A stretch of 64,000 nucleotides of DNA from positions 1 through 64,000 of the forward strand of contig JBGARZ010000026.1 of the NCBI GenBank assembly GCA_044229975.1, in the 5' to 3' direction. Shown piece after piece: positions 22,346-56,527 of the stretch (positions are counted from its first letter, which is position 1; the number at the start of each line of letters is the position of its first letter). A program made the translations under genes and the position numbers. The stretch is from Polyangiales bacterium. Its GTDB lineage: Bacteria; Myxococcota_A; Polyangia; Polyangiales; Ga0077539. The notes beneath the pieces are model-generated. The model ran no database searches. It had not been told where the DNA came from and saw nothing but the letters and a program-made list of their open reading frames with translations.

Positions 22346-22351
22346 GCACGA

Positions 22352-22486: not shown

Positions 22487-22586
22487 ACCGCGCTCGACGG
22501 TTCGCCAACCGAAGGGCGGAACTCACCAGGTCCGTGGTCGGCGCCCGCGCGCGGCTGCGTTGTAGAGTCCGCGCAGGAGATCACCG

Positions 22587-24473: not shown

Positions 24474-24477
24474 GGAG

Positions 24478-25617: not shown

Positions 25618-25639
25618 TGGAGACGCACCCAGCGAGTCG

Positions 25640-26239: not shown

Positions 26240-26281
26240 GATGGCGACCCTATCACGCACCCGTCGGAGCGTTTCCTCCGG

Positions 26282-28670: not shown

Positions 28671-29845
28671 GCGGCACCGAGGAGGAGGCTGACGTTGCTT
28701 CCGCCGAAGCCGAAGGAGTTGCTGAGCACCACCCGACAGCGCAACGAGGCGGGCGCGAGGTTGATGTGGATGCCCACCCCGGGGTCAAGCGGCGACGACC
28801 CGAGGCTCGGCGGAATCCTTCCCTCCTCAAGACTCGCGAGTGCGATGGCGGCCTCGATGGCGCCCGCCGCGCCGAGGCAGTGCCCGGTCGCGCCCTTCGT
28901 GGACACCGTCGGAACGTCCCGCCCGAACACCTCCGCCACGACCCTCGACTCGACGGCGTCGTTCTGCGGAGTGCCCGTCCCGTGGGCGTTGATGTGATCG
29001 ACCACGGCAGCGTCGAGGCCCGCCTGCGCGAGCGCACCCAGCATGGCCGCGCGGCTGCCGTGGCCCTCCGGGTCAGGCGACGACATGTGATAGCCGTCCG
29101 ACCCTTCGCCCACCCCGAGGAGCATCGCCCTCCCGTCGCCCTCGCGCTCCAGCACGAACACGGCTCCGCCCTCCCCGAGGTTGAGCCCGTCGCGGCCGAG
29201 GCCGAAGGGACGACACGCTCGCGCCGACAAGATACCCAGCGAATGAAACCCGTAGAGCGTGGTGCGACAGAGCGCGTCGACGCCGCCCACGATGGCCGCA
29301 TCGATGACGCCGAGGCGCAGGAGACGCTGGGCGCACGCGAACACCTTGCCGCTCGACGAGCAGGCCGTGGAGACCGTGTAGCCGGGGCCGCGCAGACCGA
29401 AGCGCGCGCGGGTGAGGTCGACGACGGCGTGCAGGCTGTGCTTGCGGCGCAGGTCGTAGTCATCGGGCAGCGCGCCGGTCGCGCGGTGGATGCGGAGCGC
29501 GGCTTCGGTCTGTTCGAGGCCGCCGACGCTGGTGCCGAGGAAGACGCCCACGCGATCGGCCCCGTGACGGCGGACGGCGGACTCGACGGCGCCAGCGACG
29601 TCATCGAGCAGGCGATGGACGATGCGCGCGGCGCGCGAGTCGAAGGCAACGAGCGAGTCGCCGAGCGGAGGGAGGTCGGCGACGACGCCGCAGAGGGTGG
29701 TGAAGGGCAGCTCGACGTCGGGCGCGCGAAGGCCCGAGCGACCCGACAGAACACCCTCGATGGTGTTGGCGAGACCGGTGCCCAGCGCCGTACACGCCGC
29801 GTAGGCCGTGATGGGGATCGGTTGGACGGGGGCCGCGGGAAACAA
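28667..29845 (-). CDS. Beta-ketoacyl-ACP synthase (ApeO-like)
   Basis: STACSSSGKVF, GGVDALC.TTLYGF.SL, INAHGTGTPQND, KGATGHCLGAAG, SNSFGFGGSN; start uncertain. Confidence 0.93.
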   Translation of the reverse strand: MFPAAPVQPIPITAYAACTALGTGLANTIEGVLSGRSGLRAPDVELPFTTLCGVVADLPPLGDSLVAFDSRAARIVHRLLDDVAGAVESAVRRHGADRVGVFLGTSVGGLEQTEAALRIHRATGALPDDYDLRRKHSLHAVVDLTRARFGLRGPGYTVSTACSSSGKVFACAQRLLRLGVIDAAIVGGVDALCRTTLYGFHSLGILSARACRPFGLGRDGLNLGEGGAVFVLEREGDGRAMLLGVGEGSDGYHMSSPDPEGHGSRAAMLGALAQAGLDAAVVDHINAHGTGTPQNDAVESRVVAEVFGRDVPTVSTKGATGHCLGAAGAIEAAIALASLEEGRIPPSLGSSPLDPGVGIHINLAPASLRCRVVLSNSFGFGGSNVSLLLGAA

Positions 29846-40318: not shown

Positions 40319-43300
40319 ATGTGGTCGACGCTGCACAAGGTGTACTGGATGCTCGCCGTGATCCTGATTTCAGGGTGCGGCGGCGGTGGTTGTTCGGGCT
40401 GTGCGGGCGGGGCCATCGCGCCGATCCCGGGCGGCTACCCCCTCGCGCCTGAGACGCGCATCCCGCGCGCCGCGCAGATCCGTTTGACGGAGGGCGGCCT
40501 CAACCGCATCGAGGCCGTCGCGCCGAGCCTGCTCGGCGGGCTTGTCGGCTCGGGCATCCCGGTGCCCACCATCTCGCAGAACCTCTCCGTCGGCCGCGCC
40601 ATCGTGTGCCCGTCGGGCAGCTGCCCCATCCGCATCACGCTGCCCGCCACCAACGCGCTCGACCTCGGCTTCGCCGAGCCCAACGCCATTGGTGTTCGGG
40701 CACGCGTCGAGATCAACGGCGACATCCCCATCCGCGCCTGCGTCGGCTCGTGCAACGACCGCTGCGGCGGAACCTTCTGCGGCACCATCGCGTCGCCCAC
40801 GCTCAACATCAACACGGCGCGCGGCGGGCACCCGTACATCGGCCTGTCGACGCGGGCGACCATCCGCCGCGACACGCACGCGCAGCGGCTCAACTACCAC
40901 CGCGCCGACATCGTCTCCCCGACGGGCTCGGGCGACGCCGTGCAGGAGACGCCCGGCGAGGGCATCGAAAACGAAGACATCTCCTGCAACGACAGCTGGG
41001 TCTGCGGGATCATCAACCTCCTCCGCGGCACCATCGTCGGCCTCGTGCGCGACCAGATCAGCGGCGCGCTCGGCCCCATCGCCGACGCGCTCGCGATGAG
41101 CGACACCAACCCGCCGGGCTGCCCGACGGGTACCACCGCCCGCAGCGGCTCGTGCGTGTACCCCGACAACACCAACGTGCCGACGCTGCTCGGCACCGAC
41201 GGCGCGGGCAACTTCGGCGCCCTCTTCGCGTCGCTCTCGCCGGGCGTGCGCGCCAACGTCGCCTACACCCTCGCGGCGGGTGATCCCACCGCGGACTCGC
41301 AGGTCATCAACGGCGGCATGTCCATCAACATGTTCGGCGCGATGCAGTCGGCGGGTCACAACGCCTGCGTGCCGCGCCTCCCCGCGCCGGCCATCCCGAC
41401 CATCCCCGAGTACATGGCCCTGCGCGGCAACGTGGTGCCCGGCACCATGACCCCCATCGACCTCGGCATCGGCATCGCGGAGGAGTTCCTCAACTACTCG
41501 GCGTTCCAGCTGTGGGACGCGGGCACGCTCTGCCTCGGCGTCGGCACCAACCTCAGCCAGCAGATCTCGGCGGGCACCTTCGCCATCCTCCCGGCGCTCT
41601 CCTCGATGCGCCAGATCCTCTTCCCCGCCACCACCGGTCCGGTGGCCATCGTACTGCGCCCGCAGCAGCCCCCGGCCGTCCGCATCGGCCGCGGCACCAA
41701 CGTCGACACCGACCCGCTGCTCGGCATCCGCCTGCCGCGCCTCGCGCTCGACTTCTACGCCTGGAGCGAGGAGCGCTACGTGCGCTTCATGACCCTGACC
41801 ACCGACGCCGTCGTCGGCGTCAACCTCGAAGCCGACGCGGGCGGTCTGCTGCCGCGCCTCGGGCAGCTCCGCACCGAGAACATCACGGTCTCCAACAACA
41901 CGCTGCTCTCCAACAACCCGGCCCTCATCGGCACCTCGCTGTCGGCCATCCTGGGCCCGGCGCTCGGCATGCTGGGCGGCAGCTTGAGCCCCATCGCGAT
42001 CCCGGGCTTCGACGTCCCGGGCAGCGGCGGCTCCACCCTCGGCCGCGTGGCCATCAACATCCCCGCTGGCGGCGTGCAGGGCGTGACCGAGGGCAGCAAC
42101 CGCTTCCTCGGACTCTTCGCGGGCATCGCGTTCACCCCGGCGGGCTCGCGGCCCAGCACCGCGACCCTCGACACCATCGCGACCCTCGACGCCGTGCGCG
42201 TCGAGCCGGCGTTCTTCCGCTCGGCGGCGGGCTTCACGCAGGAGAACCTCCCCCACGTGGCCTTCCACGTGAGCTCGCCCAACGACCTCGGCCACCCGGT
42301 CGAGTACTCGTGGCGCATCGACCGCCAGACCTGGTCGAGCTTCAGCACCGAGACCCAGTACGACATCCAGGACTTCGCCTTCGCGGGCCCCGGTCGTCAC
42401 ACCATCGCGGTGCGCGCGCGCATCGCGGGTGAGCCCAGCACGGCCGACAGCGAGCCGGCGCAGTTCACCTTCATCATCGACCCCGTCGCGCCGGAGCTCT
42501 CCGCGCACCTCGACCAGGGCGCCGTCATCGCCGAGGCGACCGACAACCAGAACACCGCGCTGGAGTATTCGTTCCAGTTCGACAACGGCCCCGCCTCGGA
42601 GTGGGGCGCGTCGGATCGCGCGGACGTCCCCGAGGGCGCGACCCGCATCGTGGTGCGCGTCCGCGACGCCTCGGGCAACGTCACCGAGCGCATCATCAAC
42701 CGCCAGTCCCTCATCCGCGGCGGCGCCACCACCGACTCCGGGAGCGGCGGCTGCGGCTGCCGCGTGGCGGGCGCCTCCAGCAACAGCAGCGGTCGCGGAT
42801 CGGCGGGCCTGCTCGGGCTCTTCGCCGCGGGCGTGGTGATCGCGGCGCGTCGTCGTCGCCGGGCCAGCGCCCGCGTCGCGGCGGCGCTCGTCGCCGCCAC
42901 CGGCGCCGTCGCCGTCGGTTGCGCGGACACCAACACCGCCACCAACGCCGACGGCGGCGACGGCGGCGGCGTCGTAGGCGACAACGGCATGGTCGACCCG
43001 ATGGACGGCGGCGCCACCACCTGCGAGTCGGGGCAGAACCTCTGCGCGTCGTCGGGCATGTGCACGACCCCGCCCGCGTGCCCCGAGTGCATGCCGGGCT
43101 TCGGGCCGATGGGCGCGCCGACCTTCACGGCCGCGACCTGCGCGTACGACACCTCCGCGTGCAGTTGCGTGCGGCTGCCCCCGCTGCCCCCCGGCGCGGT
43201 GGGCTCTCACCTGCACATGGCCGCCGCGGCCGATGGTGCCATCTGGATGTCCGCGTACTCGCCGGGCGAGCCGACGGACGTCGCCCGCTACGGAGACCTC

Positions 43301-44527
43301 GTGGTCGGCCGCTGGGCGCAGGAGACGAGCTCGGTGGCGTGGACCCACGTCGACGGCGTTCCGGCGACGGGGATGGTGACGGGCGACCCGATGGGCTGGC
43401 GCAACGGCGTCAGCACGCCGGGCGACGACGTCGGGCGCTTCAACAGCATCGCCCTCAACGCCGCCAACCAGCCGCGGGTCGCGTACTGGGACACCACCAA
43501 CGACAAGCTGAAGTTCGCGGCCTTCGATGGCACCGCGTGGTCGGCGCACACCGTCGACGCGCAGGGCTCCAACGGCCGCTACGCCTCGCTCGCGCTGCTC
43601 GCCGACGGCACGCCGCTCGTCGCGTACCGCGCGGTGGCCGTGTCCGCCGACGGCCAGGTGCGGTCGGTGGTGCGCGTCGCTCGCGGCAACAGCGCGACGC
43701 CCGCCCGCGCCACCGACTGGACCATCTCCGACGCCGTGACGCTCCCCAGCCGATGCCGCGCTACCGATTGCGCGACGGGTCAGTCGTGCGTGGAGAGCAC
43801 GGGCCGCTGCGCCCCCGCGGGCACCTGCGCCGCCACCTGCGGCTCGGGTCAGGCGTGCGTGGGCACCACCTGCCAGGACATCATCGAGCGCACCTTCGTC
43901 GAAGACCTGCCCCCCGGCGCGCTCTTCATCAACCTGCTCATCGACGGCATGGGCCGTCCGGCGCTGGTGTTCTACAACCGCGACCGCGGCAACCTGATGT
44001 TCGCGCAGGGCAACGCGATGGGGATGTTTGCGGCGCCGGTGATCCTCGACGGCGAAGGCGCGATGGCGCGCGACACCGGCGACCGGGGCATCTCGGCGAC
44101 CGCGACGGTGGAGGGTGCCAACACCATCCACGTGGCCTACGTCGACGGCTGGGAGGAGCGGCTGATGTACCTCCGCGTCGTCAACGGAGCGCCCATGGGC
44201 GCGCCCGCGGTGGTCGACGACGGCTCTGGCGTCGGGACGACCATGAGCTTCGAAGACGGTCGGCACATCGTGGGTGACGGCGCCTCGGTGATCGTCGGCA
44301 CCGGCGGTCTTCGCATCGCCTACCAGGACGCCACCGTCGGAACGCTCCGTCTCGCGTCCCTCACGGGCTCGGGGATGGCCGCCACGTGGACGCGCTCGGT
44401 GGTCGACTCGATGAACCACACGGGCTATTGGGCCTCGACCTCGCGCGGCTTCATCGGAACCTACTGGCGCGACCTGTCCGACTCGTCGATGCGGCGCTGG
44501 GGCGTGCGGGTCTTCCCGCTGCCCTGA
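40319..44527 (+). CDS. Large (1402 aa) lipoprotein with an internal MYXO-CTERM-like signal and a second lipobox; C-half beta-propeller-like with Cys-rich inserts
   Basis: N-terminal lipobox ISGC; GGGCGC-linker-TM-RRRRR at aa ~809-848; AALVAATGAVAVGC at aa ~855-868; repeated S.AL...G.P.VAY blades. Confidence 0.88.
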   Translation: MWSTLHKVYWMLAVILISGCGGGGCSGCAGGAIAPIPGGYPLAPETRIPRAAQIRLTEGGLNRIEAVAPSLLGGLVGSGIPVPTISQNLSVGRAIVCPSGSCPIRITLPATNALDLGFAEPNAIGVRARVEINGDIPIRACVGSCNDRCGGTFCGTIASPTLNINTARGGHPYIGLSTRATIRRDTHAQRLNYHRADIVSPTGSGDAVQETPGEGIENEDISCNDSWVCGIINLLRGTIVGLVRDQISGALGPIADALAMSDTNPPGCPTGTTARSGSCVYPDNTNVPTLLGTDGAGNFGALFASLSPGVRANVAYTLAAGDPTADSQVINGGMSINMFGAMQSAGHNACVPRLPAPAIPTIPEYMALRGNVVPGTMTPIDLGIGIAEEFLNYSAFQLWDAGTLCLGVGTNLSQQISAGTFAILPALSSMRQILFPATTGPVAIVLRPQQPPAVRIGRGTNVDTDPLLGIRLPRLALDFYAWSEERYVRFMTLTTDAVVGVNLEADAGGLLPRLGQLRTENITVSNNTLLSNNPALIGTSLSAILGPALGMLGGSLSPIAIPGFDVPGSGGSTLGRVAINIPAGGVQGVTEGSNRFLGLFAGIAFTPAGSRPSTATLDTIATLDAVRVEPAFFRSAAGFTQENLPHVAFHVSSPNDLGHPVEYSWRIDRQTWSSFSTETQYDIQDFAFAGPGRHTIAVRARIAGEPSTADSEPAQFTFIIDPVAPELSAHLDQGAVIAEATDNQNTALEYSFQFDNGPASEWGASDRADVPEGATRIVVRVRDASGNVTERIINRQSLIRGGATTDSGSGGCGCRVAGASSNSSGRGSAGLLGLFAAGVVIAARRRRRASARVAAALVAATGAVAVGCADTNTATNADGGDGGGVVGDNGMVDPMDGGATTCESGQNLCASSGMCTTPPACPECMPGFGPMGAPTFTAATCAYDTSACSCVRLPPLPPGAVGSHLHMAAAADGAIWMSAYSPGEPTDVARYGDLVVGRWAQETSSVAWTHVDGVPATGMVTGDPMGWRNGVSTPGDDVGRFNSIALNAANQPRVAYWDTTNDKLKFAAFDGTAWSAHTVDAQGSNGRYASLALLADGTPLVAYRAVAVSADGQVRSVVRVARGNSATPARATDWTISDAVTLPSRCRATDCATGQSCVESTGRCAPAGTCAATCGSGQACVGTTCQDIIERTFVEDLPPGALFINLLIDGMGRPALVFYNRDRGNLMFAQGNAMGMFAAPVILDGEGAMARDTGDRGISATATVEGANTIHVAYVDGWEERLMYLRVVNGAPMGAPAVVDDGSGVGTTMSFEDGRHIVGDGASVIVGTGGLRIAYQDATVGTLRLASLTGSGMAATWTRSVVDSMNHTGYWASTSRGFIGTYWRDLSDSSMRRWGVRVFPLP

Positions 44528-44601: not shown

Positions 44602-44689
44602 GTCGGCGTGGCGGAATGGCATACGCAGGTGGCTTAAAACCACCGGGGACGACAGTCTCGTGCGGGTTCGACCCCCGCCGCCGATACCA
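44602..44689 (+). tRNA. tRNA-Leu (anticodon UAA)
   Basis: Acceptor GTCGGCG/CGCCGAT, anticodon arm GGTGG-CT-TAA-AA-CCACC, long variable arm, GCGGG-TTCGACC-CCCGC T-arm, A discriminator, encoded CCA. Confidence 0.96.
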
Positions 44690-44741: not shown

Positions 44742-44996
44742 TCAGCTCGCGAGGGCGGTGAGCTTCTCTTCGACGAAGCGATGCACGCTGGTGAGCGTGG
44801 AGATGTTCTTGAACTCGCTCTCGGCGATCTTGAGGTGATAGCGCCGCTCGATGTCCGAGATGATCTCGATGGCCTGCATCGAGTCGACGCCGAGCTCGCG
44901 CAGCGGAACGTCGTCGCCGATGGCGTCGGCGTCCTTCTCGATGACCTCGGCGATGAGGGCGCGGAGGTCTTCCTTCAAGCTGACCGGGGTGGACAT
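44742..44996 (-). CDS. Acyl carrier protein
   Basis: ELGVDSMQAIEI; acidic 84-aa helical protein; ATG 44996 with GGAG RBS. Confidence 0.92.
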   Translation of the reverse strand: MSTPVSLKEDLRALIAEVIEKDADAIGDDVPLRELGVDSMQAIEIISDIERRYHLKIAESEFKNISTLTSVHRFVEEKLTALAS

Positions 44997-45010
44997 GGCG
45001 GCTGCTCCGT

Positions 45011-45256
45011 TCACGCGTTGGTGCGCTTCTGAACCAGGTCGACGAGCTGCGCGACGGTGGAGATGCCCACGAGCTGGTCGTCCGGAATCTGGATCTTGAA
45101 CTCGCGCTCCATCTCACCAACGATCTCGAGCATCCCAAGGGAGTCGATGCCGAGGTCGCTGATCGCCGTCTTGTCGTTGGGCAGTGGGATGTCCTTCTCG
45201 GCGACCTTGCTGGCGATCTCGCGGAAGGTGGTGAGCAACTGGTCTCGTGCGATCAT
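45011..45256 (-). CDS. Acyl carrier protein
   Basis: DLGIDSLGMLEIV..MEREF.I.IPDD; start 45256 or 45274. Confidence 0.92.
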   Translation of the reverse strand: MIARDQLLTTFREIASKVAEKDIPLPNDKTAISDLGIDSLGMLEIVGEMEREFKIQIPDDQLVGISTVAQLVDLVQKRTNA

Positions 45257-45485
45257 CGGGGCGACGCGCTCCATGGGGTGGTCATTGGGTGAGCGGCGAA
45301 GAGGCGCGCTCCAGGCGAGCGGTTCATCGCAGCGATCGTGCCTGCCTGTCAAGGCGCGCAACCCCCGAGAACACAAGCGTTTCGTGCACGTCTGAAGTGC
45401 GTAGTCGGCGTGGCGGTGGGCACCCCTTTTCGCGCCCCGCCCACGGCTTGCTGGCGTCGCGGCGCATCGGCTATAGCCCGCGCCG

Positions 45486-46733
45486 ATGGCACCTCGGGTC
45501 CTCATCACCGGGATGGGCGTGGTCAGCTCGATCGGGCTGGGCCGCGAGGCGTTCTGGCGTTCGCTCTCCCGTGGCGTGAGCGGCACCTCGCCCATCGCCT
45601 CCTTCGACACGTCGCGCCTCGGCCGCTCGCTCGCCGCCGAGGTGCAGGGCTTCCGTCCCACGGATCACCTCTCGGCCGTCGAGGCGACGCGCGCCGGTCG
45701 CTGCGCCGCCTTCGCGATGGCCGCCGCTCGCATGGCCGTGCGCGACGCGGGCCTCGGCGACGCTGCGCTCCGCACCGAGCGCGCCAGCGTCGTGCTCGGA
45801 ACCACCATGGGCGAGGCCGACGTCTGCGGGCTCCTCGACGCGCGGTGGATCCACGACGGCGCCGACGCGATGTCGGCGCGGGTGATTCCGAAGTACGCGC
45901 CGTACCTGCTCGCGATGGAGACGGCGCGCGCGCTCGGCTGTCGCGGCACGGTGCTCACGCTGCCGGCGGCATGCGCAGCGGGCAACTACGCCATCGGGTA
46001 CGCGAGCGATCTCATCCGCGCGGGCCGCGCCGACGTGGTCATCACGGGCGCCTCGGAGATGCTGCAAGAACTTCAGTTCGCGGGCTTCGTCCGGCTGGGC
46101 GCGGTCGCCCCGGAGCGCTGCCAGCCCTTCGACCTCGAACGCCAGGGTCTCATCGTCGGCGAAGGCGCCGGGGTGCTGGTGCTGGAGTCCGAGGCCCACG
46201 CGGTGCGCCGCGGCGCGACGGCGCTCGCCGAGGTCGGCGGCTACGGCCTCGCGTGCGACGCCTTCCACATCACGCGACCCGAACCCTCCGGCGCGGGGAT
46301 CATCCACGCCATCCGCGAGTCCATCCGTCGCTCGGGGCTGACGGCGACGGACGTGGACTTCATCAACGCCCACGGCACGGCGACCAAGGCCAACGACGTG
46401 GTGGAGTCGACGGCGGTGCGTGAAGTGTTTGGCGGGCGAGCGGTTCCGCTCACGTCGGTGAAGAGCCTCATCGGGCACTGCATGGGCGCGGCGAGCGCCA
46501 TCGAGGCGGTGAGCTGCGTCGAGACCATCCTCACGGGCGTCTATCCACCGACCGTGGGCTACACGACGCCCGACCCGGAGTGCGACGTGGCCGTGGTCGC
46601 CAACGAGGCGGGACGTGGGCGCGCCGACGTGGTGCTCAACCATTCTCTGGCCTTCGGTGGCTACGACGCGGTGGTGCTCTTCGCGAAGCCCGATCGCCTG
46701 CCGCCGCCCGACGCGCGTGAGGTGTCGGCGTGA
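45486..46733 (+). CDS. Beta-ketoacyl-ACP synthase (FabF-like, catalytic)
   Basis: AACAAGN (Cys), INAHGTAT.AND, KSLIGHCMGAA, LAFGG. Confidence 0.93.
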   Translation: MAPRVLITGMGVVSSIGLGREAFWRSLSRGVSGTSPIASFDTSRLGRSLAAEVQGFRPTDHLSAVEATRAGRCAAFAMAAARMAVRDAGLGDAALRTERASVVLGTTMGEADVCGLLDARWIHDGADAMSARVIPKYAPYLLAMETARALGCRGTVLTLPAACAAGNYAIGYASDLIRAGRADVVITGASEMLQELQFAGFVRLGAVAPERCQPFDLERQGLIVGEGAGVLVLESEAHAVRRGATALAEVGGYGLACDAFHITRPEPSGAGIIHAIRESIRRSGLTATDVDFINAHGTATKANDVVESTAVREVFGGRAVPLTSVKSLIGHCMGAASAIEAVSCVETILTGVYPPTVGYTTPDPECDVAVVANEAGRGRADVVLNHSLAFGGYDAVVLFAKPDRLPPPDAREVSA

Positions 46734-47884
46734 CCCCGCTCGCCCTCACCGGCTTCGGCGTCGCCTCGCCCCTCGGCCTCGGCTGGGATGCCTTTCGCGC
46801 GAGCCTCGCGGCCCCGCCGGGCGGCGCGTTTACGACGACCCCGACGAGCTTCACGCACCCGCCGCACCCGGCCCTGCGCCTCGCGGAGATCGCCAACTTC
46901 GACCCGCGCCCCATCGTCGGCGACAAGGGTCTGCGCAACAACGATCGGCTCACCCGCCTGCTCCTCGTGGCGGCGCGGCTCGGCCTCGACCACGCGGGCG
47001 TGAAGCGCGAAGCGGCCTTCATCGCGCTCGGCCCCACGGAGGTCGGCGTGTGCGCGTCGACGGCGTACGGGAGCCTGGAGGCCATCCACGAGCTCGACAC
47101 GGTCTCGCGGCTCGAAGACCCGCGGTACATCAACCCGGCGCGCTTCCCCAACACGGTCATCAACAGCTCCGTCGGGTACGTGAGCATCTGGGAAGACCTG
47201 CGCGCCCTCAACGCGACCATCACCAACGGCCCCACCGGGGGCCTCGACGCCTTCGACGCCGCGTCGCTCTGGCTCGCCGCGGGGCGCGCGAAGGCCGTGC
47301 TCACGGGTGGCGCCGAGGCGTCGTCCGAGGGGCTGTGGCACGCGCTTCGACGACTCGGCGTGCTCGACGAGACGCCCGCGACCTGGGCGCCCGGCGACCC
47401 CGCCTCGCGAGGGCTGCGGCTCGGTGAGGGCGCGTGTCTGATGGTGCTCGAAGAGACCGCTGCGGCGAGGGCGCGAGGCGCGACGGTCCACGCGGAGGTC
47501 GTCGGGTACGGCGCGGCGTTTGAGCCGACGGACGACAGCGCGCCGATGGTTCATGTGAGCGGCGAGGCGCTGGCGCGTGCGGTGCGGATGGCGCTCGCGG
47601 ACGCAGGCATCGAGCGCTCGCGGGTGGCGATGGCAGTGAGCGGACTCGGCGGGCTACCGGCCCTTGATGGGCCCGAGCGCGCTGCGATCGCCGCGGTGCT
47701 GGACGGCGTCGAGATCAAGACGCCGAAGTCGTGGTGCGGTGAGACGCTCGGCGCGGCGGGGGCCTTCGGGGTCGCCGCGGCGAGCGCATGGTTGGCGGAC
47801 CGGAGCGCGGGCGACTGCGCGGTAGTGACATCCGTCGGGTTCTACGGAAACGCGTCGGCGCTGGTGGTTCGACGTGCGGAGTGA
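46730..47884 (+). CDS. Non-catalytic ketosynthase homolog (chain-length-factor-like)
   Basis: KS fold motifs (P..FPNTV.N, GEGA...VLE, GETLGA.G), but the Cys position reads NGPTGG and both His positions are replaced; GTGA coupling to the KS. Confidence 0.85.
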   Translation: MTPLALTGFGVASPLGLGWDAFRASLAAPPGGAFTTTPTSFTHPPHPALRLAEIANFDPRPIVGDKGLRNNDRLTRLLLVAARLGLDHAGVKREAAFIALGPTEVGVCASTAYGSLEAIHELDTVSRLEDPRYINPARFPNTVINSSVGYVSIWEDLRALNATITNGPTGGLDAFDAASLWLAAGRAKAVLTGGAEASSEGLWHALRRLGVLDETPATWAPGDPASRGLRLGEGACLMVLEETAAARARGATVHAEVVGYGAAFEPTDDSAPMVHVSGEALARAVRMALADAGIERSRVAMAVSGLGGLPALDGPERAAIAAVLDGVEIKTPKSWCGETLGAAGAFGVAAASAWLADRSAGDCAVVTSVGFYGNASALVVRRAE

Positions 47885-47887
47885 GCG

Positions 47888-49120
47888 ATGAGCTGGATCG
47901 ATGACAAGGCCCACGAGGGTCTGGCGAGGGTGCGCGAGGCGCGCGAGGCCGGGGTGTATCCGTTCTTCCGGGCCTTCGAGAGCGGGGGATTGCGGACGAC
48001 GGTCGAGGGTCACGCCTTCGTCAACTTCAGCTCCAACGACTACCTCGGGCTCACCAACCACCCGAAGGTGAAGGAGGCCGCCAAGCGCGCGGTGGACGTC
48101 TTCGCGTGTGGGCTGTCGAGCTCGCGCGTGCAGGCCACCACCACGGCCCACGTGGAGATCGAAGACCGCCTCGCGAAGTACTTTGGCTTCGAGAAGGCGC
48201 TCGTCACCACCACGGGCTACCAGGCAATGGTCGCGACCATCATGGCGCTCGCCGACCGCGACACGGCGCTCATCCTCGACAACCTGTCGCACGCCTGCAT
48301 CCTCGACGGGACGTTCCTCGCGGCGGGCACGCCGGGCCGTGCGCCCGAGGTGCGCTTCTTCAACCACAACAGCGCGCGCTCGCTGGAGCGGGTGCTCAAG
48401 TCGCGCGAGCGCCCCAACGCGCTGGTGCTGGTCGAGGGCATCTACTCGCTCGACGGCGACATGGGGAAGCTCGCCGAGATCATCGAGGTGTGCGACCGCC
48501 ACGGCGCCGTTCTCGTCGTCGACGACGCCCACGGCTCCGGGACGCTCGGCACCCACGGGCGCGGCATCCTCGAACACCTCGGCCTGGAGGGTCGCGCGCC
48601 CATCGTGGTGTCGACCTTCTCCAAGGTCTTCGGCGGCATCGGCGGCATCATCCTCGGCGGCACCGAGGTCATCGACCACATCAAGCACACCGCGCGCAGC
48701 TTCGTGTTCAGCGCGACGCTCCCGGTGCCCATCGTGGCGGCGGCGTCGACCATCCTCACCATGCTGGAGGAGGAGGGCCCCGCCCTGGTCGCGGAGCTCC
48801 ACGACAACGCGAAGTACATGCGGGCACAGCTCCTCGACCGCGGCTTCGACCTCGGCGCGAGCGATACGCACATCATGCCGGTGATGGTGCGCGACGAGCG
48901 CAAGGCGATGATGCTCCACCACCTGCTCTACGAGCGCGGCGTGTACCTCGTCCCCATCACGTACCCCGGCGTGAAGGTCGGCGAGGAGCGCCTGCGGGTC
49001 AACGTCACCCGCGGCCACACCCGCGCCGAGATGGCGCTCGCGCTGTCGTGCCTCGAAGAGCTGGGCGCCGCCTGCGAGATCCGCAAGCAGGACGCGCAGC
49101 CCGCAGCCCCCATCGCCTGA
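47888..49120 (+). CDS. PLP-dependent alpha-oxoamine synthase, serine palmitoyltransferase-like
   Basis: GVYPFFR, FSSNDYLGL, SHACILDG, EGIYSLDGD, DDAHG.G, TFSKVFG (PLP Lys). Confidence 0.88.
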   Translation: MSWIDDKAHEGLARVREAREAGVYPFFRAFESGGLRTTVEGHAFVNFSSNDYLGLTNHPKVKEAAKRAVDVFACGLSSSRVQATTTAHVEIEDRLAKYFGFEKALVTTTGYQAMVATIMALADRDTALILDNLSHACILDGTFLAAGTPGRAPEVRFFNHNSARSLERVLKSRERPNALVLVEGIYSLDGDMGKLAEIIEVCDRHGAVLVVDDAHGSGTLGTHGRGILEHLGLEGRAPIVVSTFSKVFGGIGGIILGGTEVIDHIKHTARSFVFSATLPVPIVAAASTILTMLEEEGPALVAELHDNAKYMRAQLLDRGFDLGASDTHIMPVMVRDERKAMMLHHLLYERGVYLVPITYPGVKVGEERLRVNVTRGHTRAEMALALSCLEELGAACEIRKQDAQPAAPIA

Positions 49121-49172: not shown

Positions 49173-51458
49173 ATGTCGCCGACCCGCACCCACGTCCCCT
49201 GGCCCGAGCTCGCCGCGCTCGGCGCGCTCTTCGTCGCCGTCGCGGCGTGGAGCGGATCGGGCCGCCCGGTGGACCCGCGCGGGATGTCCCTCGCCGCGGT
49301 CGCGGTGCTCATCGCGCTCTCGCCCCGTCGGCTCACCAAGGTCGGCCACGGCGCGCAGGCCGAGGCCATCGCCGTCGCCGCTGCGCTCGGCGCGCTCTCC
49401 GTCGCCACCGTGGTCGCAGGCTTCGGCCCGCCTTCTGCGGCGCTCCGCATCGCCCACGCCCTCGCCTCGGGCGAGCTGCTCGGGCTCTCCACGGTGCTCG
49501 CCTTCGCGCAGCCCATGCGCACGTCGTCGCTGCGCCGCGCCGCGCTCCCGGGCCTCTTCGTCGCCGCGCTCGGAACCGCTGGGCTCTGGCCCGGCGCCGT
49601 CCATTGGTTCCCGGGTGCGCGTGCGCTTGCGCCCGCTGCGGCGGCCATCGCGGCGCTGCTGCACCTCGCTGCGCTCCAGCGACCGACCCCGCCCGTCGAG
49701 CGCGCCCGCTGGATCTACCCCACCCTCGGCGTCACCGCCCTCGCCCTCGCCACCGTTGCGCGGGCCCTCTCGGGGTCGGGCGACGGTGCGCTCTTCGCGT
49801 GGGGTCTCGGGGTCGCGGCTCACGTCGTCGGCCTCGTGGTCGGACACGCCGACGCCTCCGCGGCGAAGGCGGGTCCCTTCGCGCGGCGCACCTTCGCGGC
49901 CTGCCTTGGGTTCATGGCGGGAGCCGTGGCGCTGGTTTTCGGTCCCGACGCGCCGATGACGGCGATGGGCGTCGGGCTCGGCGTCGCCGCCTTTGTATTG
50001 CCGCTCATCGATCGCTGGTACCGGCCCGTCGAGGGTCGCCTGCTCGACGCCTGCGACCGCATCGAACGCAACCTCGCGCGCGCGGAGGGCCTCGATGAGC
50101 TCGCGGCGGCGGTGCTCGATCCGCTGCGCGAGGCGGCGCGAAATCTGCGAGCGCCCGCGGCGTTCTGGGTGCTCGACGGCGCGCGGGTGCTGAGGGTCGA
50201 CGTCGCGGGGACCCCGTCGGTCGGAGCGTTTTCCATCGAGGCCGAGAAGGCGCTGGTGACGTGGCTGCGAACGCGCCCGTCGGTGGTCTTCACCGACACG
50301 CTGCGGCCTCACCTCGTGCAACGTCCGGAGCTGCGGCCCGTGGCCGACGCGCTCGACGCGCATGAAGCCTTCGCGGCGGTTCCGCTGTGCGACGCCGACC
50401 AGCTCCTCGGGGTGGTGCTCGTCCCGCGCGGCGAGCGATCGACGCCCGCGAGCTTCGAGGAGGAGAGTCGCCTGGAGGTCGTTCGGCGGCTGGTGGAGGG
50501 AGCGCTGCTCCGCATCCTGGCGGCGGAGCGATCGGCCGCGCGGGCGGCAGAGGCGCAGCGTCGTGAGGCCGTGGAGAAGCGTCGCGCGGAGGATGCCGAG
50601 CGCGAGCTCACCCGCGTGGGCGCGCTGGTGGTGGAGTCGTCGTCCGTGGCGGCGCTCGGAACGCTCGCGACGAAGTGGGTCGCGTACGCCCCGGCCTCGC
50701 GGGTGTTTCAGTCGGCGCTCGACGCGCTCGCGACGACGGACGGACCGGTGGCGCTCGTCACGACGGCCAACGTGTCGGCGCGCGCGGCCGCGGCGCGACT
50801 GCACGCGCAGGGCCCGCGGGCGGCGCGCGGGCTGATGGTGTTCGACGCGTCGTCGGTGGACATGCGGGCGGTGCTGCCGGCGCTGCTCGGCGACGCGCGC
50901 GGTGAGGCGCCCTCCCCCGGTTGGCTGGAGCGCGCGGTGGGCGCGACGCTGCTCATCGAGAACGTGGTGGCCCTGGGTCACGAGGGGCTGACGGCGCTCG
51001 CGGGGGCGCTCGACCGCGGCGTCGGTCGTCGCCTCGGAGACCAGACGGCCTACGCCGTGGACGTGCGGGTGATCGTGACGCTGCCGAAGGAGCCGTCGGA
51101 GTGCGACCTGCCGGTGTCCCTGCTCCGCCGACTCATCGACCGCACGGCGCGGGTGCCGTCGCTGCGCGAGCGATCGGACGACCTCGAGTCACTCGTGTAC
51201 GCGACCATCGACCGCGCCTGCCGCTGCGCCGACCGCAGCCCCCTCGGCATCGCGCCTGACGCGCTCGCGGCGCTGCGCGCGCACGCCTGGCCCGGTGAGC
51301 TGCCCGAGCTCGATGCCGTCATCGCCCACGCCGTCGCCCACGCCCGCGGCTCGCGCATCCAGACGGACGATCTGCCGCCGGTCGTGCGCGCGTCGGTGTT
51401 CACGATCGCGCGCCGTGACGACGACGAGCACGACCGCGGCGCCAGCTACGACGACTGA
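49173..51458 (+). CDS. Multi-TM protein with a GAF-like region and a degenerate sigma54-activator AAA+-like domain
   Basis: Several N-terminal TM helices; DVRVI, VPSLRER.DDL, AL..HAWPG...EL, I...DLP retained; Walker A, Walker B DE, GAFTGA and the HTH are absent. Confidence 0.8.
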   Translation: MSPTRTHVPWPELAALGALFVAVAAWSGSGRPVDPRGMSLAAVAVLIALSPRRLTKVGHGAQAEAIAVAAALGALSVATVVAGFGPPSAALRIAHALASGELLGLSTVLAFAQPMRTSSLRRAALPGLFVAALGTAGLWPGAVHWFPGARALAPAAAAIAALLHLAALQRPTPPVERARWIYPTLGVTALALATVARALSGSGDGALFAWGLGVAAHVVGLVVGHADASAAKAGPFARRTFAACLGFMAGAVALVFGPDAPMTAMGVGLGVAAFVLPLIDRWYRPVEGRLLDACDRIERNLARAEGLDELAAAVLDPLREAARNLRAPAAFWVLDGARVLRVDVAGTPSVGAFSIEAEKALVTWLRTRPSVVFTDTLRPHLVQRPELRPVADALDAHEAFAAVPLCDADQLLGVVLVPRGERSTPASFEEESRLEVVRRLVEGALLRILAAERSAARAAEAQRREAVEKRRAEDAERELTRVGALVVESSSVAALGTLATKWVAYAPASRVFQSALDALATTDGPVALVTTANVSARAAAARLHAQGPRAARGLMVFDASSVDMRAVLPALLGDARGEAPSPGWLERAVGATLLIENVVALGHEGLTALAGALDRGVGRRLGDQTAYAVDVRVIVTLPKEPSECDLPVSLLRRLIDRTARVPSLRERSDDLESLVYATIDRACRCADRSPLGIAPDALAALRAHAWPGELPELDAVIAHAVAHARGSRIQTDDLPPVVRASVFTIARRDDDEHDRGASYDD

Positions 51459-52222: not shown

Positions 52223-52954
52223 ATGCACCATGTGATCTACGGTTTCCTCGTCACGTTCCACCACCAGACGCCCAACGCGGGGGCGGGGCACGCGCCGGGC
52301 ACCCTGGAGCTCATCGCGCAAGCGACGCTCCCGGTGAAGCTGGTGCTCGCGCTCCTGCTCTTCTTCTCGCTGATCTGCTGGTACATCATCGGATACAAGT
52401 GGCTCTATCTCCGCCGCGCCTTCGCGGAGAACGAAGCCTTCCTCGTGATCTTCGAGCAGACGCGGCAGCTCAACGTCGCCGCCGAGGCCGCCTCACAGCG
52501 CCCGCGCAGCCCCGTCGCGGCGATGTACCGCGCGGGCTACGACGAGCTCCTGCGCGTGAAGGCCGCGTCCGATGGTGAAGACGCCCCGGGCATCGAAAAC
52601 GTCGAGCGCGCCCTGCGCCGCGCCCACGCCCGGCAGACCACCGTGCTCGAAAGCATGATCCCCTTCCTGGCGACCACCGGCAGCACGGCCCCCTTCATCG
52701 GCCTCTTCGGAACCGTCTACGGCATCATGCACGCCTTCGTGCAGCTCTCCGCGTCGCGCGACACCGCGACCATCGACCGCGTCGGCCCCGGCATCGCCGA
52801 GGCGCTCTTCACCACCGCCGTCGGCCTGGTCGCCGCCATCCCCGCGGTCATCGCGTACAACTACTTCGTGCGCCGCCTCCGCATCATCACGACGGAGATG
52901 GACATCTTCGGCAACGACTTCCTCAACATCGTGCGCCGGCACATCCTGAAGTAG
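52223..52954 (+). CDS. tolQ: TolQ (MotA/TolQ/ExbB family)
   Basis: FLATTGSTAPFIGLFGTVYGIM.AF, PGIAEAL..TA.GL.AAIPAV.AYN. Confidence 0.92.
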   Translation: MHHVIYGFLVTFHHQTPNAGAGHAPGTLELIAQATLPVKLVLALLLFFSLICWYIIGYKWLYLRRAFAENEAFLVIFEQTRQLNVAAEAASQRPRSPVAAMYRAGYDELLRVKAASDGEDAPGIENVERALRRAHARQTTVLESMIPFLATTGSTAPFIGLFGTVYGIMHAFVQLSASRDTATIDRVGPGIAEALFTTAVGLVAAIPAVIAYNYFVRRLRIITTEMDIFGNDFLNIVRRHILK

Positions 52955-52963
52955 CCGACGGCC

Positions 52964-53407
52964 ATGTCGTTCTCCACCAACAGCGGCGGCGGCACGGGGC
53001 CGATGAGCGAGATCAACGTCACGCCGCTCGTCGACGTGATGCTCGTGCTGCTCATCATCTTCATGGTGACCGCCCCGATGGTGCAGGCCGGCCTCCGGGT
53101 CGACCTCCCCAACGCCGAGGCCCCGGCCATCCCCAACGCCGAGCAGAAGCTCCGCATCACCATCGGTCACGAGGACGCCAACGTCCCCACGTCGCCCATC
53201 GCCGTCTGGATCGGCCGCGACAAGACCACCCTCGAACGCCTCACCGAGCAGCTCCGCGCCAACGCCATCGTGCAGCGCGACCACGAGGCGTACATCCAGG
53301 CCGACGAGAGCATTCCCTACGGCATCGTCGTGCGCGTGCTCGCCGCGATGCGCACGGCCGGGGTCGAGCGACTCGGCATCGTCACCGACCCCCTCACCAG
53401 TCAGTAA
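52964..53407 (+). CDS. tolR: TolR (ExbD/TolR family)
   Basis: MSEINVTPLVDVMLVLLIIFMVTAPM, V.LP, AD..IPYG.VV.V, AG.ERLG.VT. Confidence 0.93.
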   Translation: MSFSTNSGGGTGPMSEINVTPLVDVMLVLLIIFMVTAPMVQAGLRVDLPNAEAPAIPNAEQKLRITIGHEDANVPTSPIAVWIGRDKTTLERLTEQLRANAIVQRDHEAYIQADESIPYGIVVRVLAAMRTAGVERLGIVTDPLTSQ

Positions 53408-53410
53408 CGG

Positions 53411-54004
53411 TCACGCCGCGGCGTCGAGGCCCATCTGCTCGCGCAGCGCGCAGCGCGTGCGCCACAGCTTGCTCTTCACGGCCGCGACCGGCTGCCCCAC
53501 GGCGTCGGCGATCTCCGCGCAGGACTCTCCGCCGATGGAGCGTTCGAGGAGGGCGCGCTTGTCCGTGGGCAGGGCCTCCAGGCGATCGCTCACCCGGTCG
53601 AGGTCGACGCGGGCCATCACGTACGACTCCGGGTCGCGGAACGCGGTGCCCGCTTCGAGGTTCTGCTCGCACTCGGCGCCCGCGTGCTCGCCGAGCCGAT
53701 CGACCCCGCGCTTGCGGGCCGCCGCACGTCGCCGCTGGTAGAGCGCCGCGTTGACCACGATGCTGTACATCCAGCTCGCGACGGCCGCGTCGCCGCGGAA
53801 GCGCTCGGCGTGGCGGAGGGCGCTCACCATTCCCTCCTGCACCGCGTCCCAGGCGTCGTCCTCGTTGCGCGTCACCCGCAGCGCCGCGTGAAAGAGCCGC
53901 GACTCGTACGACCGGAAGGCCGCTTCGACGGTGCGCTTGATCTCCGGCGCCACTGCCACGAGACCCACGACCTGACGACCGCCACCACTCTGAACTTCCA
54001 CCAC
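53411..54004 (-). CDS. ECF-family RNA polymerase sigma factor
   Basis: DA.DAVQE, FRGDA....WMY.IVVN, EIA..VG.P...VKSKL.R.R; GGAGG RBS before GTG 54004. Confidence 0.92.
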   Translation of the reverse strand: MVEVQSGGGRQVVGLVAVAPEIKRTVEAAFRSYESRLFHAALRVTRNEDDAWDAVQEGMVSALRHAERFRGDAAVASWMYSIVVNAALYQRRRAAARKRGVDRLGEHAGAECEQNLEAGTAFRDPESYVMARVDLDRVSDRLEALPTDKRALLERSIGGESCAEIADAVGQPVAAVKSKLWRTRCALREQMGLDAAA

Positions 54005-54051
54005 GCTCGTTCAACCTCCGTCTCGGCTCCGGCCGATGTGCCCAACCTTTG

Positions 54052-54067
54052 AGCAACGTCGGTGCCA
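54052..54067 (-). promoter_or_regulatory. Sigma54 (-24/-12) promoter of the ECF sigma gene
   Basis: Minus strand TGGCACCGACGTTGCT: GG-N10-GC with near-consensus flanks, 47 nt upstream of the start. Confidence 0.8.
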
Positions 54068-54257
54068 TCCGGGAAAGACCGCGAACGTGCCTTCGCGACC
54101 ACCGACGAGGTCCACGTTCTGTGACCCCCGGCGATGCCATCGGAGGGACCACGGCATCGTTTCGTTGCACTGCGCGACGGGGCGACGGGGTGGAGCGTCT
54201 GTCCAAGGCTCGTCGGCGGCGGAGGGTTCTGGTAGTGCAACCACAGGAGCCGCGACC

Positions 54258-55184
54258 GTGACCACGCCCCCGACGCTGCGACCGCCCCCCTCGCTCGACC
54301 CGAGCGTCCCGGGCATCTCCCGACCGTCGGTTCCGTTCGCGGTCGGCGTGCCGTCCGCGCCGCCGCCCCCGTCGCCGCTGCGACAGCGAGAGCGGGTCAC
54401 CTCCAGCGATGGGTCGGGCGTGGCGATGGGCCTCTTCGCGGCGGTGGTGGTGCACGGCCTCGTGGTGTTGTTGTCGGTGCGGCTGGGGCACGCCGAGGGC
54501 AACGTCGCCACGCGACCCCACGACGCGCGCGAAGACCAGATCCTGGAGACGCACCTCCTTCAACAGGGCGGCGGGGTGTTCGATCCGCGGCAGCAGGTGC
54601 ACCGGGAGGTTCCGATTCGCGCCGAGCGCGAGGCGCCGCAGGCGGTGACGCCGACCGCCGACCCCACGCAGGTTCGCCTCGCCCCCGACGCCGGCCCGCA
54701 GGACTACATGGCCGCGATCACCCAGCGCACCCGCCGCGGATCGGGCAATCAAGACCTCGCCGAGATGGATCGCATCGCGCACATGGCAGCGCTGGAGCAG
54801 GCGGCCGATCCCACGGTCGCCGGCCCGGGTGATCCCACGGGCAGCGCGCACGGCGACACCACCGACCCGGCGCTCGCGACCCGCGGCGCCGGAACGAAGA
54901 TCGACCGCTTCCTGCGCGACCACATCCGCACGTCGGCGACGCTCACTGGCAGCGAGTCGCGCGAGGTGGTGTTTCGCATCCGCCTCGACGCGACGGGCGC
55001 CATCGAGTTGGCCGAGCAGGGTGCGTCATCGGGCAACGAGAGCCTCGACGGCGACATCCTCGGTCAGGCGCAGCGCCTCGCCACCGACCACGCCCGCATC
55101 CCCGACCTCACGCCCGAAGAACTCCAGAGCGTGGCCGGGCGCACCATCAACATCCGCGTCCCCATGGCGGGCATCACGCACTGA
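54258..55184 (+). CDS. TolA/TonB-like energy transducer
   Basis: AGGAG RBS then GTG 54258; Pro-rich N-terminus, TM with S/A..VH, C-terminal V.FRIRLD..G.I......SSGN.SLD; directly upstream of tolB. Confidence 0.8.
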   Translation: MTTPPTLRPPPSLDPSVPGISRPSVPFAVGVPSAPPPPSPLRQRERVTSSDGSGVAMGLFAAVVVHGLVVLLSVRLGHAEGNVATRPHDAREDQILETHLLQQGGGVFDPRQQVHREVPIRAEREAPQAVTPTADPTQVRLAPDAGPQDYMAAITQRTRRGSGNQDLAEMDRIAHMAALEQAADPTVAGPGDPTGSAHGDTTDPALATRGAGTKIDRFLRDHIRTSATLTGSESREVVFRIRLDATGAIELAEQGASSGNESLDGDILGQAQRLATDHARIPDLTPEELQSVAGRTINIRVPMAGITH

Positions 55185-55240
55185 CGTTCCGCGCGTCTCG
55201 CTTCGCTTCGAGGGGGAGTGTCCGTTAGAGTGCGCGGACG

Positions 55241-56527
55241 ATGCGACGGCAGCTCCCCTGGCTTCTCATCTCGGTCGCTGCGGCGGCCGCGGTGCTCCCC
55301 CCACTGCTCTCGGACGCGCAGCCGCTGCCGCCCACTCCACCGACGCCGCCGGGCAACGGCGAGCTCACCATCACCCTGTCGGGTCTCGAAGCGCGGCTCC
55401 TCCCGGTGGCCATCCCCGCCTTTCGCGGCACCGGGGGCGACGCCGTCTCCGCCATCGTCTCCAACGACCTGCGACTGAGCTCGCTCTTCCGCGTGCTCGA
55501 CGCGCGATCGTTTACCGCCGACCTCGACGCCGAGGGTCTCAACATCACCCCGGCCTCGTGGACCACCGTCGGCGCCACCGCCGTCGTGAAGGCCATGGTC
55601 ACCGGCTCCGGCGACGCGACCCGCATCGAGCTCAAGGTATGGGAGCCCGGCAGCCCCGCCGCGCCGCGCCTCACGCGCACCTACGGCCCCGGCGCGCCCC
55701 GCGCCCTCGCCCACCGCATCGCCAACGACCTCATCCTGCTCTACACGCGCACGGCGGGCGTGTTCGGGACGCGCATCGCGTTTGCGCGGCGCACGGGCAA
55801 CGGCCGCAAGCAGATCTTCTCCGTCGACTGTGATGGAGAAAACCTCTCGCAGGTCTCGGCGGGTCGGCGCCTCAACTTCACGCCCGCATGGGGCCCCGGC
55901 GGCATCTACTTCTCGTCGCAGACGCCCGACGGCTTCCTCGCGCTCTTCCGCCAGGGGCGCAGCGAGCCCGTGCTGCGCGCCGACGGGCTCGTGATGGGCG
56001 CGGCCTTCGGCGGCGGGCGCATGGCCGTGGTGCTCACCCGCGACGGCAACAGCGAGATCTACGTGGGCGGCACCGACGGGTCGAGCCTGCGCCGGCTCAC
56101 CAACGACTCCGGCGCGGACATCACCCCGGTGTGGTCGCCCGATGGGTCGAAGATCGCGTTCGTGAGCGACCGCTCGGGCGGGCCGCAGGTGTACGTGATG
56201 GACGCGGGCGGCGGCGGACAGCGCCGGGTGAGCTTCCAGGGCACGTACAACACCGGGCCCTCGTGGGCGCCCGACAGCAACACCCTCGCCTACGCGAGCC
56301 GCGGCAACGGCGGCACCGACATCTTTACGGTGGGCGTAAACGGCGGCGCGGTGCGTCGGCTCACCGAGGGTCAGGGGAGCAACACCGACCCGACGTACTC
56401 GCCCGACGGCCGGATGATCGCGTTCAGCTCCTCGCGTGGCGGCATCTTCCTGATGAACCAGGACGGCCTCAACCAGCAGCGCATCCTGCCCGGCACGGCG
56501 GAGGGTCTGCGCTGGGAGCCGCGATGA
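55241..56527 (+). CDS. tolB: TolB-like periplasmic beta-propeller protein
   Basis: Signal peptide; PVAIP.F, AHRIAN, G.F.TRIAF, PD40 repeats (P.WSPDG.KIAF.SDR.G.PQVY). Confidence 0.9.
   Translation: MRRQLPWLLISVAAAAAVLPPLLSDAQPLPPTPPTPPGNGELTITLSGLEARLLPVAIPAFRGTGGDAVSAIVSNDLRLSSLFRVLDARSFTADLDAEGLNITPASWTTVGATAVVKAMVTGSGDATRIELKVWEPGSPAAPRLTRTYGPGAPRALAHRIANDLILLYTRTAGVFGTRIAFARRTGNGRKQIFSVDCDGENLSQVSAGRRLNFTPAWGPGGIYFSSQTPDGFLALFRQGRSEPVLRADGLVMGAAFGGGRMAVVLTRDGNSEIYVGGTDGSSLRRLTNDSGADITPVWSPDGSKIAFVSDRSGGPQVYVMDAGGGGQRRVSFQGTYNTGPSWAPDSNTLAYASRGNGGTDIFTVGVNGGAVRRLTEGQGSNTDPTYSPDGRMIAFSSSRGGIFLMNQDGLNQQRILPGTAEGLRWEPR

Follow-up and report, generated by a model that had tools for sequence, protein, structure and literature searches.

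A ketosynthase, chain-length-factor and alpha-oxoamine synthase cassette that probably serves the first stage of ceramide synthesis in Polyangiales

Known bacterial sphingoid bases arise either from a serine palmitoyltransferase (SPT) acting on ordinary acyl-CoA or acyl-acyl carrier protein (acyl-ACP), or from a type I polyketide synthase (PKS) coupled to an alpha-oxoamine synthase (AOS). Among systems with paired ketosynthases, ishigamide Iga11/Iga12 belongs to a highly reducing type II PKS with a polyene product, and prodiginine PigJ/PigH and RedL involve a ketosynthase (KS) whose partner is inactive, together with two ACPs and an AOS by which the chain is released with an amino acid. Here we examine five adjacent genes of a Polyangiales bacterium (GenBank assembly GCA_044229975.1, contig JBGARZ010000026.1, positions 1 to 64,000; this whole stretch of 64,000 nucleotides is the window), which encode two ACPs (ACP1 and ACP2), a KS, a non-catalytic KS homolog resembling a chain length factor (CLF), and a pyridoxal phosphate (PLP)-dependent AOS.

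Three further described systems are close to this cassette. The AasR-AcpR-Spt system, together with CerS (YghO) and CerR, is described for Caulobacter crescentus and Escherichia coli BL21(DE3) in the accessible parts of two papers (PMC9386255, PMC11324152). In Pseudomonas fluorescens MYb115, according to the available portion of a preprint, the PKS SgaA and the AOS SgaB give rise to long-chain sphinganines (bioRxiv 2024.02.06.579051). The paired enzymes amxFabF2/amxFabFmut of anammox bacteria, as far as the available text of a second preprint goes, catalysed the decarboxylation of malonyl-ACP and the formation of acetoacetyl-ACP; hexanoyl-ACP was not elongated, and cross-linking was faster with C8 than with C16 (bioRxiv 10.64898/2026.05.19.726425).

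The five genes are probably central to an alternative way of starting ceramide synthesis in Polyangiales. An earlier account of this DNA, made from its letters alone (the sequence-only reading), had proposed that a dedicated KS/CLF pair builds an acyl-ACP that the AOS releases with an amino acid. A sphingoid-base product, which that reading had named, is also the best reading of the present data, by virtue of mutual exclusion with SPT-like genes, a CerS homolog and an AOS fused to a reductase-like domain. Its minimal type II module is, on the present data, not a free-standing one for a secondary metabolite; it is the core of a larger, housekeeping-like cassette that includes a fatty acyl-AMP ligase.

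The cassette synthase and sphingolipid synthesis

The order was represented by a family-balanced sample of 61 Polyangiales genomes, namely the source genome (G000) and 60 relatives. An AOS ortholog is present in 55 of them, single-copy and 64-87% identical in the relatives. The six that lack it, all from family f11, match NF047600 at E<=1e-100, and no other genome of the sample does; their SPT-like genes score 441-471 bits on the CFB-type SPT profile. This relation served as a prediction for three further genomes (G150, G155 and G174) that were chosen only for lacking an AOS ortholog; each has an SPT-like gene of 451-456 bits, situated 60-1145 nt from a CerS homolog. Family f17, with 121 genomes, divides in a similar manner: 40 genomes are of the cassette type (38 full and 2 partial, the unpublished G325 included), 7 are of a sister type at 41-47% identity, and the remaining 74 have only a 35-43% match. 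All seven genes fetched from this last class are 67-71% identical to the f11 SPT-like gene, and just 2 of the 40 cassette carriers have a second match at E<=1e-70. The cassette AOS and the conventional SPT-like gene are mutually exclusive, and the cassette probably stands in for the usual bacterial SPT, for which no gene was found in its carriers.

Two further observations concern the later steps of ceramide synthesis. The source genome encodes a CerS homolog (C32:944733-945869) that is 35% identical to E. coli YghO (E 2e-71), an enzyme identified as a dihydroceramide N-acyltransferase in the accessible part of its description (PMC9386255). CerS homologs are present in 60 of the 61 order genomes, and at one related locus (L027) the gene is directly beside the AOS. 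In addition, protein P0131 (744 aa, 50% identical to the AOS) is a sister-clade AOS fused to a short-chain reductase domain. The nearest Atlas clusters of this domain carry the name 3-dehydrosphinganine reductase (KDSR) with a feature score of 1.00, and its template modelling (TM) score to a chordate cluster is 0.93, the cluster names being automatic. The sister AOS lineage (P0131, P0133, L163-L167) has no adjacent KS/CLF and accounts for the 7 sister-type f17 genomes, of which five were fetched.

The AOS has H135, D212, H215 and K246 invariant in 91 of 91 alignment rows. Its function is putatively that of an SPT. Its best PDB matches are SPTs (E 9e-68), with an AONS/KBL match at E 3e-65, and Ser79, which precedes a conserved Arg, agrees with the SPT alignment; glycine-specific alpha-oxoamine synthases have a bulkier residue at the equivalent position. 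Scores against profile cut-offs are 317/640 bits for SerpalmtaseCFB, 273/500 for SPT beta, 223/670 for SPT alpha, 311/426 for bioF (TIGR00858), 294/460 for Kbl and 73/900 for PigJ. A tree of 94 rows was built from 65 of 150 representatives, 19 Polyangiales AOS-type rows, BioF, Kbl and E. coli Spt, by a quick method with SH-aLRT supports only and with one experimentally named SPT. In it, cassette AOSs form their own branch (support 100), joined by P0131/P0133 (99) and P0137 (99), which falls outside the BioF/Kbl branch (90). By tree and profile, the AOS appears to be a lineage of its own that lies outside the SPT clades described so far. The sequence-only reading, which had judged the synthase closer to SPTs than to BioF, holds weakly by profile: the GVYPFFR..ES and TTGYQ motifs are there, the profile margin is small (317 against 311 bits), and the phylogeny that it called for places the AOS outside the BioF/Kbl branch and outside that of E. 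coli Spt.

A separate BioF-like gene in the source genome scores 384 bits on TIGR00858, above the cassette AOS. The cut-off of this profile is passed in 15 of the 61 genomes, never by the cassette gene, and the BioF-like gene directly precedes bioD in 4 of 5 genomes, the source genome (C23) included. A further paralog of the source genome, on C34, groups with E. coli Kbl (support 100). As the sequence-only reading had noted, no bio genes are near the cassette; bioB, bioF, bioD and bioA sit on other contigs, and the two separate genes and the tree support an AOS that is neither BioF nor Kbl. Genomes without the cassette retain bioB, and all 12 genomes of the order sample that lack the CLF carry it, so biotin synthesis is independent of the CLF.

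LpxC was not found in 49 of the 61 order genomes, among them the source genome (93% complete). All 49 carry an AOS ortholog, as do six genomes that possess LpxC.

Composition, conservation and distribution of the cassette

The catalytic triad of the KS (C163/H296/H331) is invariant in 66 of 66 alignment rows, the window's own included. At the corresponding positions the CLF has P168, G305 and E338. The glutamate is found in 72 of 72 rows and Asn takes the Cys position in 52 of 72; the register at this position was read by hand and is consistent with the 9S5H_C alignment. The KS stop and CLF start overlap by 4 nt, and a gap of 3 nt separates the CLF end from the AOS start. An intact KS coupled to a partner without any of the three catalytic residues, as seen in the sequence-only reading, is what the alignments return.

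The best PDB sequence matches of the KS are 9S5H_B (E 5e-107) and then the ishigamide KS 6KXD (E 3e-87), and that of the CLF is 9S5H_C (E 5e-40). Entries 9S5H/9S5I are probably the anammox amxFabF2/amxFabFmut heterodimer, because C170/H303/H340 of chain B correspond to residues 165/298/335 of the paper with an offset of +5 and the Cys site of chain C is occupied by Val. The KS model (pLDDT 95) has 6KXD as its top fold match (TM score 0.92, 42% identity). Co-folding of KS and CLF, a check proposed along with the idea of a dedicated pair, gave 0.95 as compared to 0.00 for the best control, with contact agreement of at least 96% between runs and partner pLDDT of at least 91; the mark applied is reached by 116 of 157 solved pairs and by 2 of 215 mismatched pairs. 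The KS and CLF are predicted to form a heterodimer, with the qualification that like complexes have been solved and the co-fold pass therefore shows likeness only. Aromatic type II PKSs are marked by a glutamine at the CLF Cys position and by cyclases. Here this position has Pro or Asn, and no cyclase is among the recurring neighbours. No cognate ketoreductase (KR) or dehydratase (DH) was found in the window cassette, and none recurs in related loci.

Conservation of the arrangement was followed in two overlapping sets of loci, in which kin are not independent: 40 fetched loci, and 57 loci that were counted, out of the best 80 of 197 relatives, for having at least 6 kb of upstream sequence (23 were dropped). 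KS, CLF and AOS are contiguous in 30 of the 40, which argues that the arrangement is not due to chance. KS-CLF is upstream of the AOS in 51 of the 57 loci, both ACPs were found in 46, and in 39 of 68 loci no more than 30 nt separate the CLF end from the AOS start. The genes are co-conserved, as had been expected. Across Myxococcota, where synteny was also to be followed, the conserved cassette proved to be a matter of Polyangiales only: in a phylum sample, the AOS ortholog occurs in 22 of 25 genomes of the order and in 0 of 126 outside it, and the CLF ortholog in 16 of 25, with a single 34% match outside. In the order sample, the CLF is present in 49 of 61 genomes and was never seen without an AOS ortholog. 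The cassette is lineage-wide, not universal. Its designation as an order-wide core gene was rejected, as this holds in the family-balanced sample (55/61) and fails in family f17 (40/121).

The larger cassette includes a fatty acyl-AMP ligase gene, which is located between ACP2 and KS in 35 of the 57 loci; in most ligase-bearing loci the ACP2 gene comes after it. The source genome has its ligase ortholog off the contig (G000:C38:214658-216508, 49% identical to P0007), and this is the best genome match of E. coli AasR (34%). ACP2 is the best, though weak, genome match of E. coli AcpR (25%, E 2e-5). In 5 of the 57 loci ACP1 alone faces the AOS and the KS/CLF are absent. ACP2 is the putative starter carrier, loaded by the ligase, and ACP1 the putative product or extender carrier and AOS partner, because ACP2 follows the ligase gene and ACP1 stays beside the AOS in genus g18. 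All six genes are kept in a single-contig genome of 1.8 Mb (G145:C1:460772-467060), which also has CerS, a CMAS gene and bioA/B/D/F, and no LpxC match. For Sorangium, Myxococcus and Stigmatella, the accessible part of the AcpR/AasR study lists only distant homologs in other contexts, and from that part the genes sce7052/7053 could not be confirmed as belonging to the cassette (PMC9386255).

Other genes join the cassette less often. A YbgC-type thioesterase gene follows ACP1 in 12 of the 57 loci (by its profile name, the family is usually tied to tol-pal), and in 4 the two ACP genes are separated by one for an acyl-ACP desaturase. A third ACP is encoded 3' of the AOS in 11 loci that have a full-length match (e.g. 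L075, L097, L117). A CMAS-family methyltransferase is encoded inside the cassette at L019:3494-4279 and L040:14601-15455; orthologs are present in 34 of the 61 order genomes, in the source genome at C23:463158-464021. It is a candidate for methyl branching of the sphingoid base, and fungal C9-methyltransferases belong to the same family. Work by Keck from 2011 reportedly described a C9-methyl-C20-sphingosine among the lipids of Sorangium cellulosum So ce56; it is not used here as support, since no cassette protein of a named Sorangium isolate was found and genus g183, which may be Sorangium by its genome size (12-14 Mb) and its lack of LpxC, has the conventional-type gene. An epimerase and cysE near the AOS copies of genus g18 are confined to g18-type loci and are hence treated as neighbours.

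Table 1. Features of the cassette, in window positions
Feature	Position	Strand	Length	Remarks
ACP1	44742-44996	-	84 aa	Pfam PP-binding, E 1e-15; DS phosphopantetheine motif
ACP2	45014-45274	-	87 aa	Second ATG at 45256; Pfam PP-binding, E 2e-13; DS phosphopantetheine motif
Divergent intergenic region	45275-45485			Position taken by the fatty acyl-AMP ligase gene in 35/57 related loci
Ketosynthase (KS)	45486-46733	+	415 aa	Cys163-His296-His331 intact
Non-catalytic KS homolog, chain-length-factor-like (CLF)	46730-47884	+	384 aa	GTG start
PLP-dependent alpha-oxoamine synthase (AOS)	47888-49120	+	410 aa	PLP lysine K246

The open reading frames of all five genes are intact (Table 1). The two ACPs are 28% identical, share a strand and are divergent from the KS, in keeping with their earlier description as dissimilar and divergently transcribed. 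A promoter and terminator scan was negative, with no sigma-70 consensus found in the divergent intergenic region. A tRNA-Leu(TAA) gene (44602-44689, plus strand) is convergent with ACP1, and beyond it a predicted secreted protein of 1,402 aa with no Pfam match (40319-44527) adjoins the cassette in 9 of 41 loci. Directly 3' of the AOS, a gene for a membrane protein with GAF-like and degenerate sigma-54 activator domains (49173-51458) is kept only among close relatives (10 of 41 loci); tolQ, tolR and tolB homologs follow at 52223-56527. The window also holds a separate second type II ketosynthase cluster (10834-29845), presumably of an aryl-polyene-like kind. Two of its KS genes pass profiles, PRK09116 (26282-27505) and PRK09185 (28667-29845), and there is a third KS. 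An ACP (14712-14963) and a flavin halogenase-like gene (14968-16155) belong to the cluster as well, as does an MMPL/RND transporter (19356-21716).

Proposed pathway and competing explanations

The proposed pathway would begin with the fatty acyl-AMP ligase, encoded here on C38, which would attach a fatty acid to ACP2. The acyl group would pass to Cys163 of the KS, and the KS/CLF heterodimer would extend the chain with malonyl-ACP1. Since the cassette has no reductase or dehydratase, keto-processing would be borrowed from the housekeeping enzymes FabG/FabZ/FabI; fabG-acpP-fabF of the source genome was spotted by eye on C11. The AOS would condense acyl-ACP1 with L-serine, its presumed substrate. 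The resulting 3-keto long-chain base would be N-acylated by the CerS homolog (C32:944733-945869), and a further reductase would complete the ceramide. The SgaAB precedent, to the extent that its available text describes it, indicates that serine can be joined to an ACP-bound chain that a ketosynthase has extended. The conservation of the single-copy AOS, its retention in the 1.8 Mb genome and the recurrence of lipid-tailoring genes in the cassette also favour the scheme. By analogy with the in vitro behaviour of amxFabF2/amxFabFmut, the cassette KS/CLF may begin with a short acyl chain and build on it instead of extending C16 by one unit.

Several results weigh against this scheme. The AOS scores below every SPT cut-off and nearly as high on bioF as on its best SPT profile; it lies outside the branch that holds E. 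coli Spt (96), and its grouping with the SPTs against BioF/Kbl is supported at 90 only. The gene that it displaces is itself SPT-like, below the 640 cut-off. As CerS is near-universal in the order, it is no marker of the cassette in particular; the P0131 fusion is a single sequence, and its second domain was not called KDSR by the PDB search. In the source genome, no clear CerR was found (a weak family-level match only, E 3e-16), nor any reductase with a KDSR-type motif. All three genomes of genus g183 lack both LpxC and the cassette, having a conventional-type SPT-like gene in its place, and both genomes of g198 have the two together. With these counter-examples in both directions, the link between the cassette and loss of lipopolysaccharide is a loose one, and the idea that the cassette replaces lipopolysaccharide was rejected. 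In genus g18 (four genomes checked), ACP1-AOS is kept and the KS/CLF and ligase ortholog were not found, and in several genomes (L139-L144) the KS/CLF are apart from the AOS. In 19 of the 61 genomes, by hand count, bioB is no more than 25 kb away from the AOS or the CLF, and neither a BioC over cut-off nor BioW was found in the five genomes searched. Finally, the probable nearest characterised KS/CLF, in the accessible part of its description, favours C8 over C16 and showed no in vitro elongation.

A variant of the proposed pathway, which we regard as possible though unlikely, is that the KS/CLF sets the chemistry of the sphingoid head as well as its length and hands the AOS a polyketide-type chain that is incompletely reduced, a trans-2-enoyl-ACP1, whose condensation with serine would give a 4E-sphingosine like that of eukaryotes directly, without a Delta-4 desaturase, and so constitute a third, type II PKS-based sphingolipid route. 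It would fit the absence of an enoyl reductase from the cassette and the polyene- and ladderane-type character of the nearest KS/CLFs.

It is doubtful that ACP1 and the AOS start sphingolipids alone, with the ligase, ACP2 and KS/CLF making instead the N-acyl chain of ceramide, some other special fatty acid, or pimeloyl-ACP for BioF. The g18 genomes just described have the shape that this division of labour would predict, and at L139, L140 and L142 the ligase-ACP-KS-CLF block, away from the AOS, has bioB tail to tail with its ACP end; the missing BioC and BioW would leave room for a pimeloyl supply. The proposed division is hard to square with the 51 of 57 loci in which KS-CLF precedes the AOS, often by 30 nt or less, with a CLF that was never found without an AOS ortholog, and with bioB in all 12 CLF-less genomes.

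Improbable, too, is an AOS that takes glycine, alanine, cysteate or a 3-ketoacyl-ACP, to yield 1-deoxy bases, a capnine-like lipid, or an alkyl-pyrroline or aminoketone in the manner of RedL or PigH/PigJ. Its standing as a separate lineage would allow for another substrate, a 3-ketoacyl product is the default of a cassette without a reductase, a cysteate C-acyltransferase is among its PDB matches (E 8e-59), and near AOS representatives include ligase-ACP-AOS fusions. A small-molecule pathway would not be expected, however, to exclude a CerS-linked SPT-like gene or to have a KDSR-like fusion in its sister clade, and both the low PigJ score and Ser79 speak against this reading.

That the AOS is a second 8-amino-7-oxononanoate synthase in a biotin-precursor pathway is very improbable: JGI names such as '8-amino-7-oxononanoate synthase', the near-equal bioF score, bioB nearby in some genomes and an unexplained source of pimelate favour it, but a better-scoring BioF-like gene that mostly abuts bioD, the position of the AOS outside the BioF/Kbl branch, and bioB in cassette-less genomes all tell against it.

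Significance and comparison with described systems

A full-text literature search, with most subscription papers outside its coverage, turned up no account of a myxobacterial KS/CLF associated with an SPT-like enzyme. If the proposed pathway is true, a discrete KS/CLF that together with two ACPs supplies an AOS lineage of its own would add to the known routes to sphingoid bases and would be a second case, beside the ladderane pair, of a KS/CLF acting on a membrane lipid; the enoyl-ACP1 variant, if true, would mean that ordinary SPT has been displaced in a large part of a bacterial order. The pathway would also reassign hundreds of genes that the SPT cut-offs miss and that at present bear the names BioF or Kbl (1,195 proteins reach E<=1e-150 among 7,998 candidates scored). 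The cassette also offers a small soluble system in which to study CLF control of lipid chain length, and family f17, with its three largely exclusive synthase types, is a natural experiment in which lipids can be compared.

Compared with prodiginine PigJ/PigH, the cassette AOS is far below the PigJ profile cut-off, and no pyrrolyl-carrier or proline-oxidation genes recur in the examined loci. Ishigamide Iga11/Iga12 (PDB 6KXD) is a KS/CLF heterodimer and the top structural match of the KS model; the cassette differs in its housekeeping-like distribution and in being without cognate KR, DH or nonribosomal peptide synthetase.

The pair amxFabF2/amxFabFmut, of anammox ladderane cluster I, is probably the best solved match of both KS and CLF and belongs to a membrane-lipid cluster. 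Judged from the accessible part of its description, most of its tunnel residues are shared and invariant in the cassette family (A162, F201 and M333 of the KS; F139, T142 and V143 of the CLF), whereas Met108 (66/66) of the cassette takes the place of tunnel residue Ala110. The cassette has an AOS, and the amxFabZ, radical-SAM and desaturase-like PDH genes reported for the ladderane cluster in that text are absent from the cassette and do not recur in related loci.

SgaA/SgaB, in the portion of its description at hand, resembles the proposed pathway in that a ketosynthase-extended, carrier-bound chain is joined to serine by a PLP enzyme, in a strain without canonical SPT. SgaA is a single iterative type I PKS that contains a complete reductive loop, whereas the cassette is made up of separate type II proteins, a CLF among them, and lacks enzymes for reduction.

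AasR-AcpR-Spt shares with the cassette a fatty acyl-AMP ligase, a dedicated ACP, a PLP-dependent AOS and a CerS homolog in the genome, and the relation is one of best matches for the ligase (34%) and CerS (35%). The cassette adds the KS/CLF and a second ACP, its AOS is on a different branch and 34% identical to E. coli Spt, and it has no CerR within it. The cassette is likely to function as an AasR-AcpR-Spt system into which a type II extender has been built, and by profile it falls outside the described SPT families.

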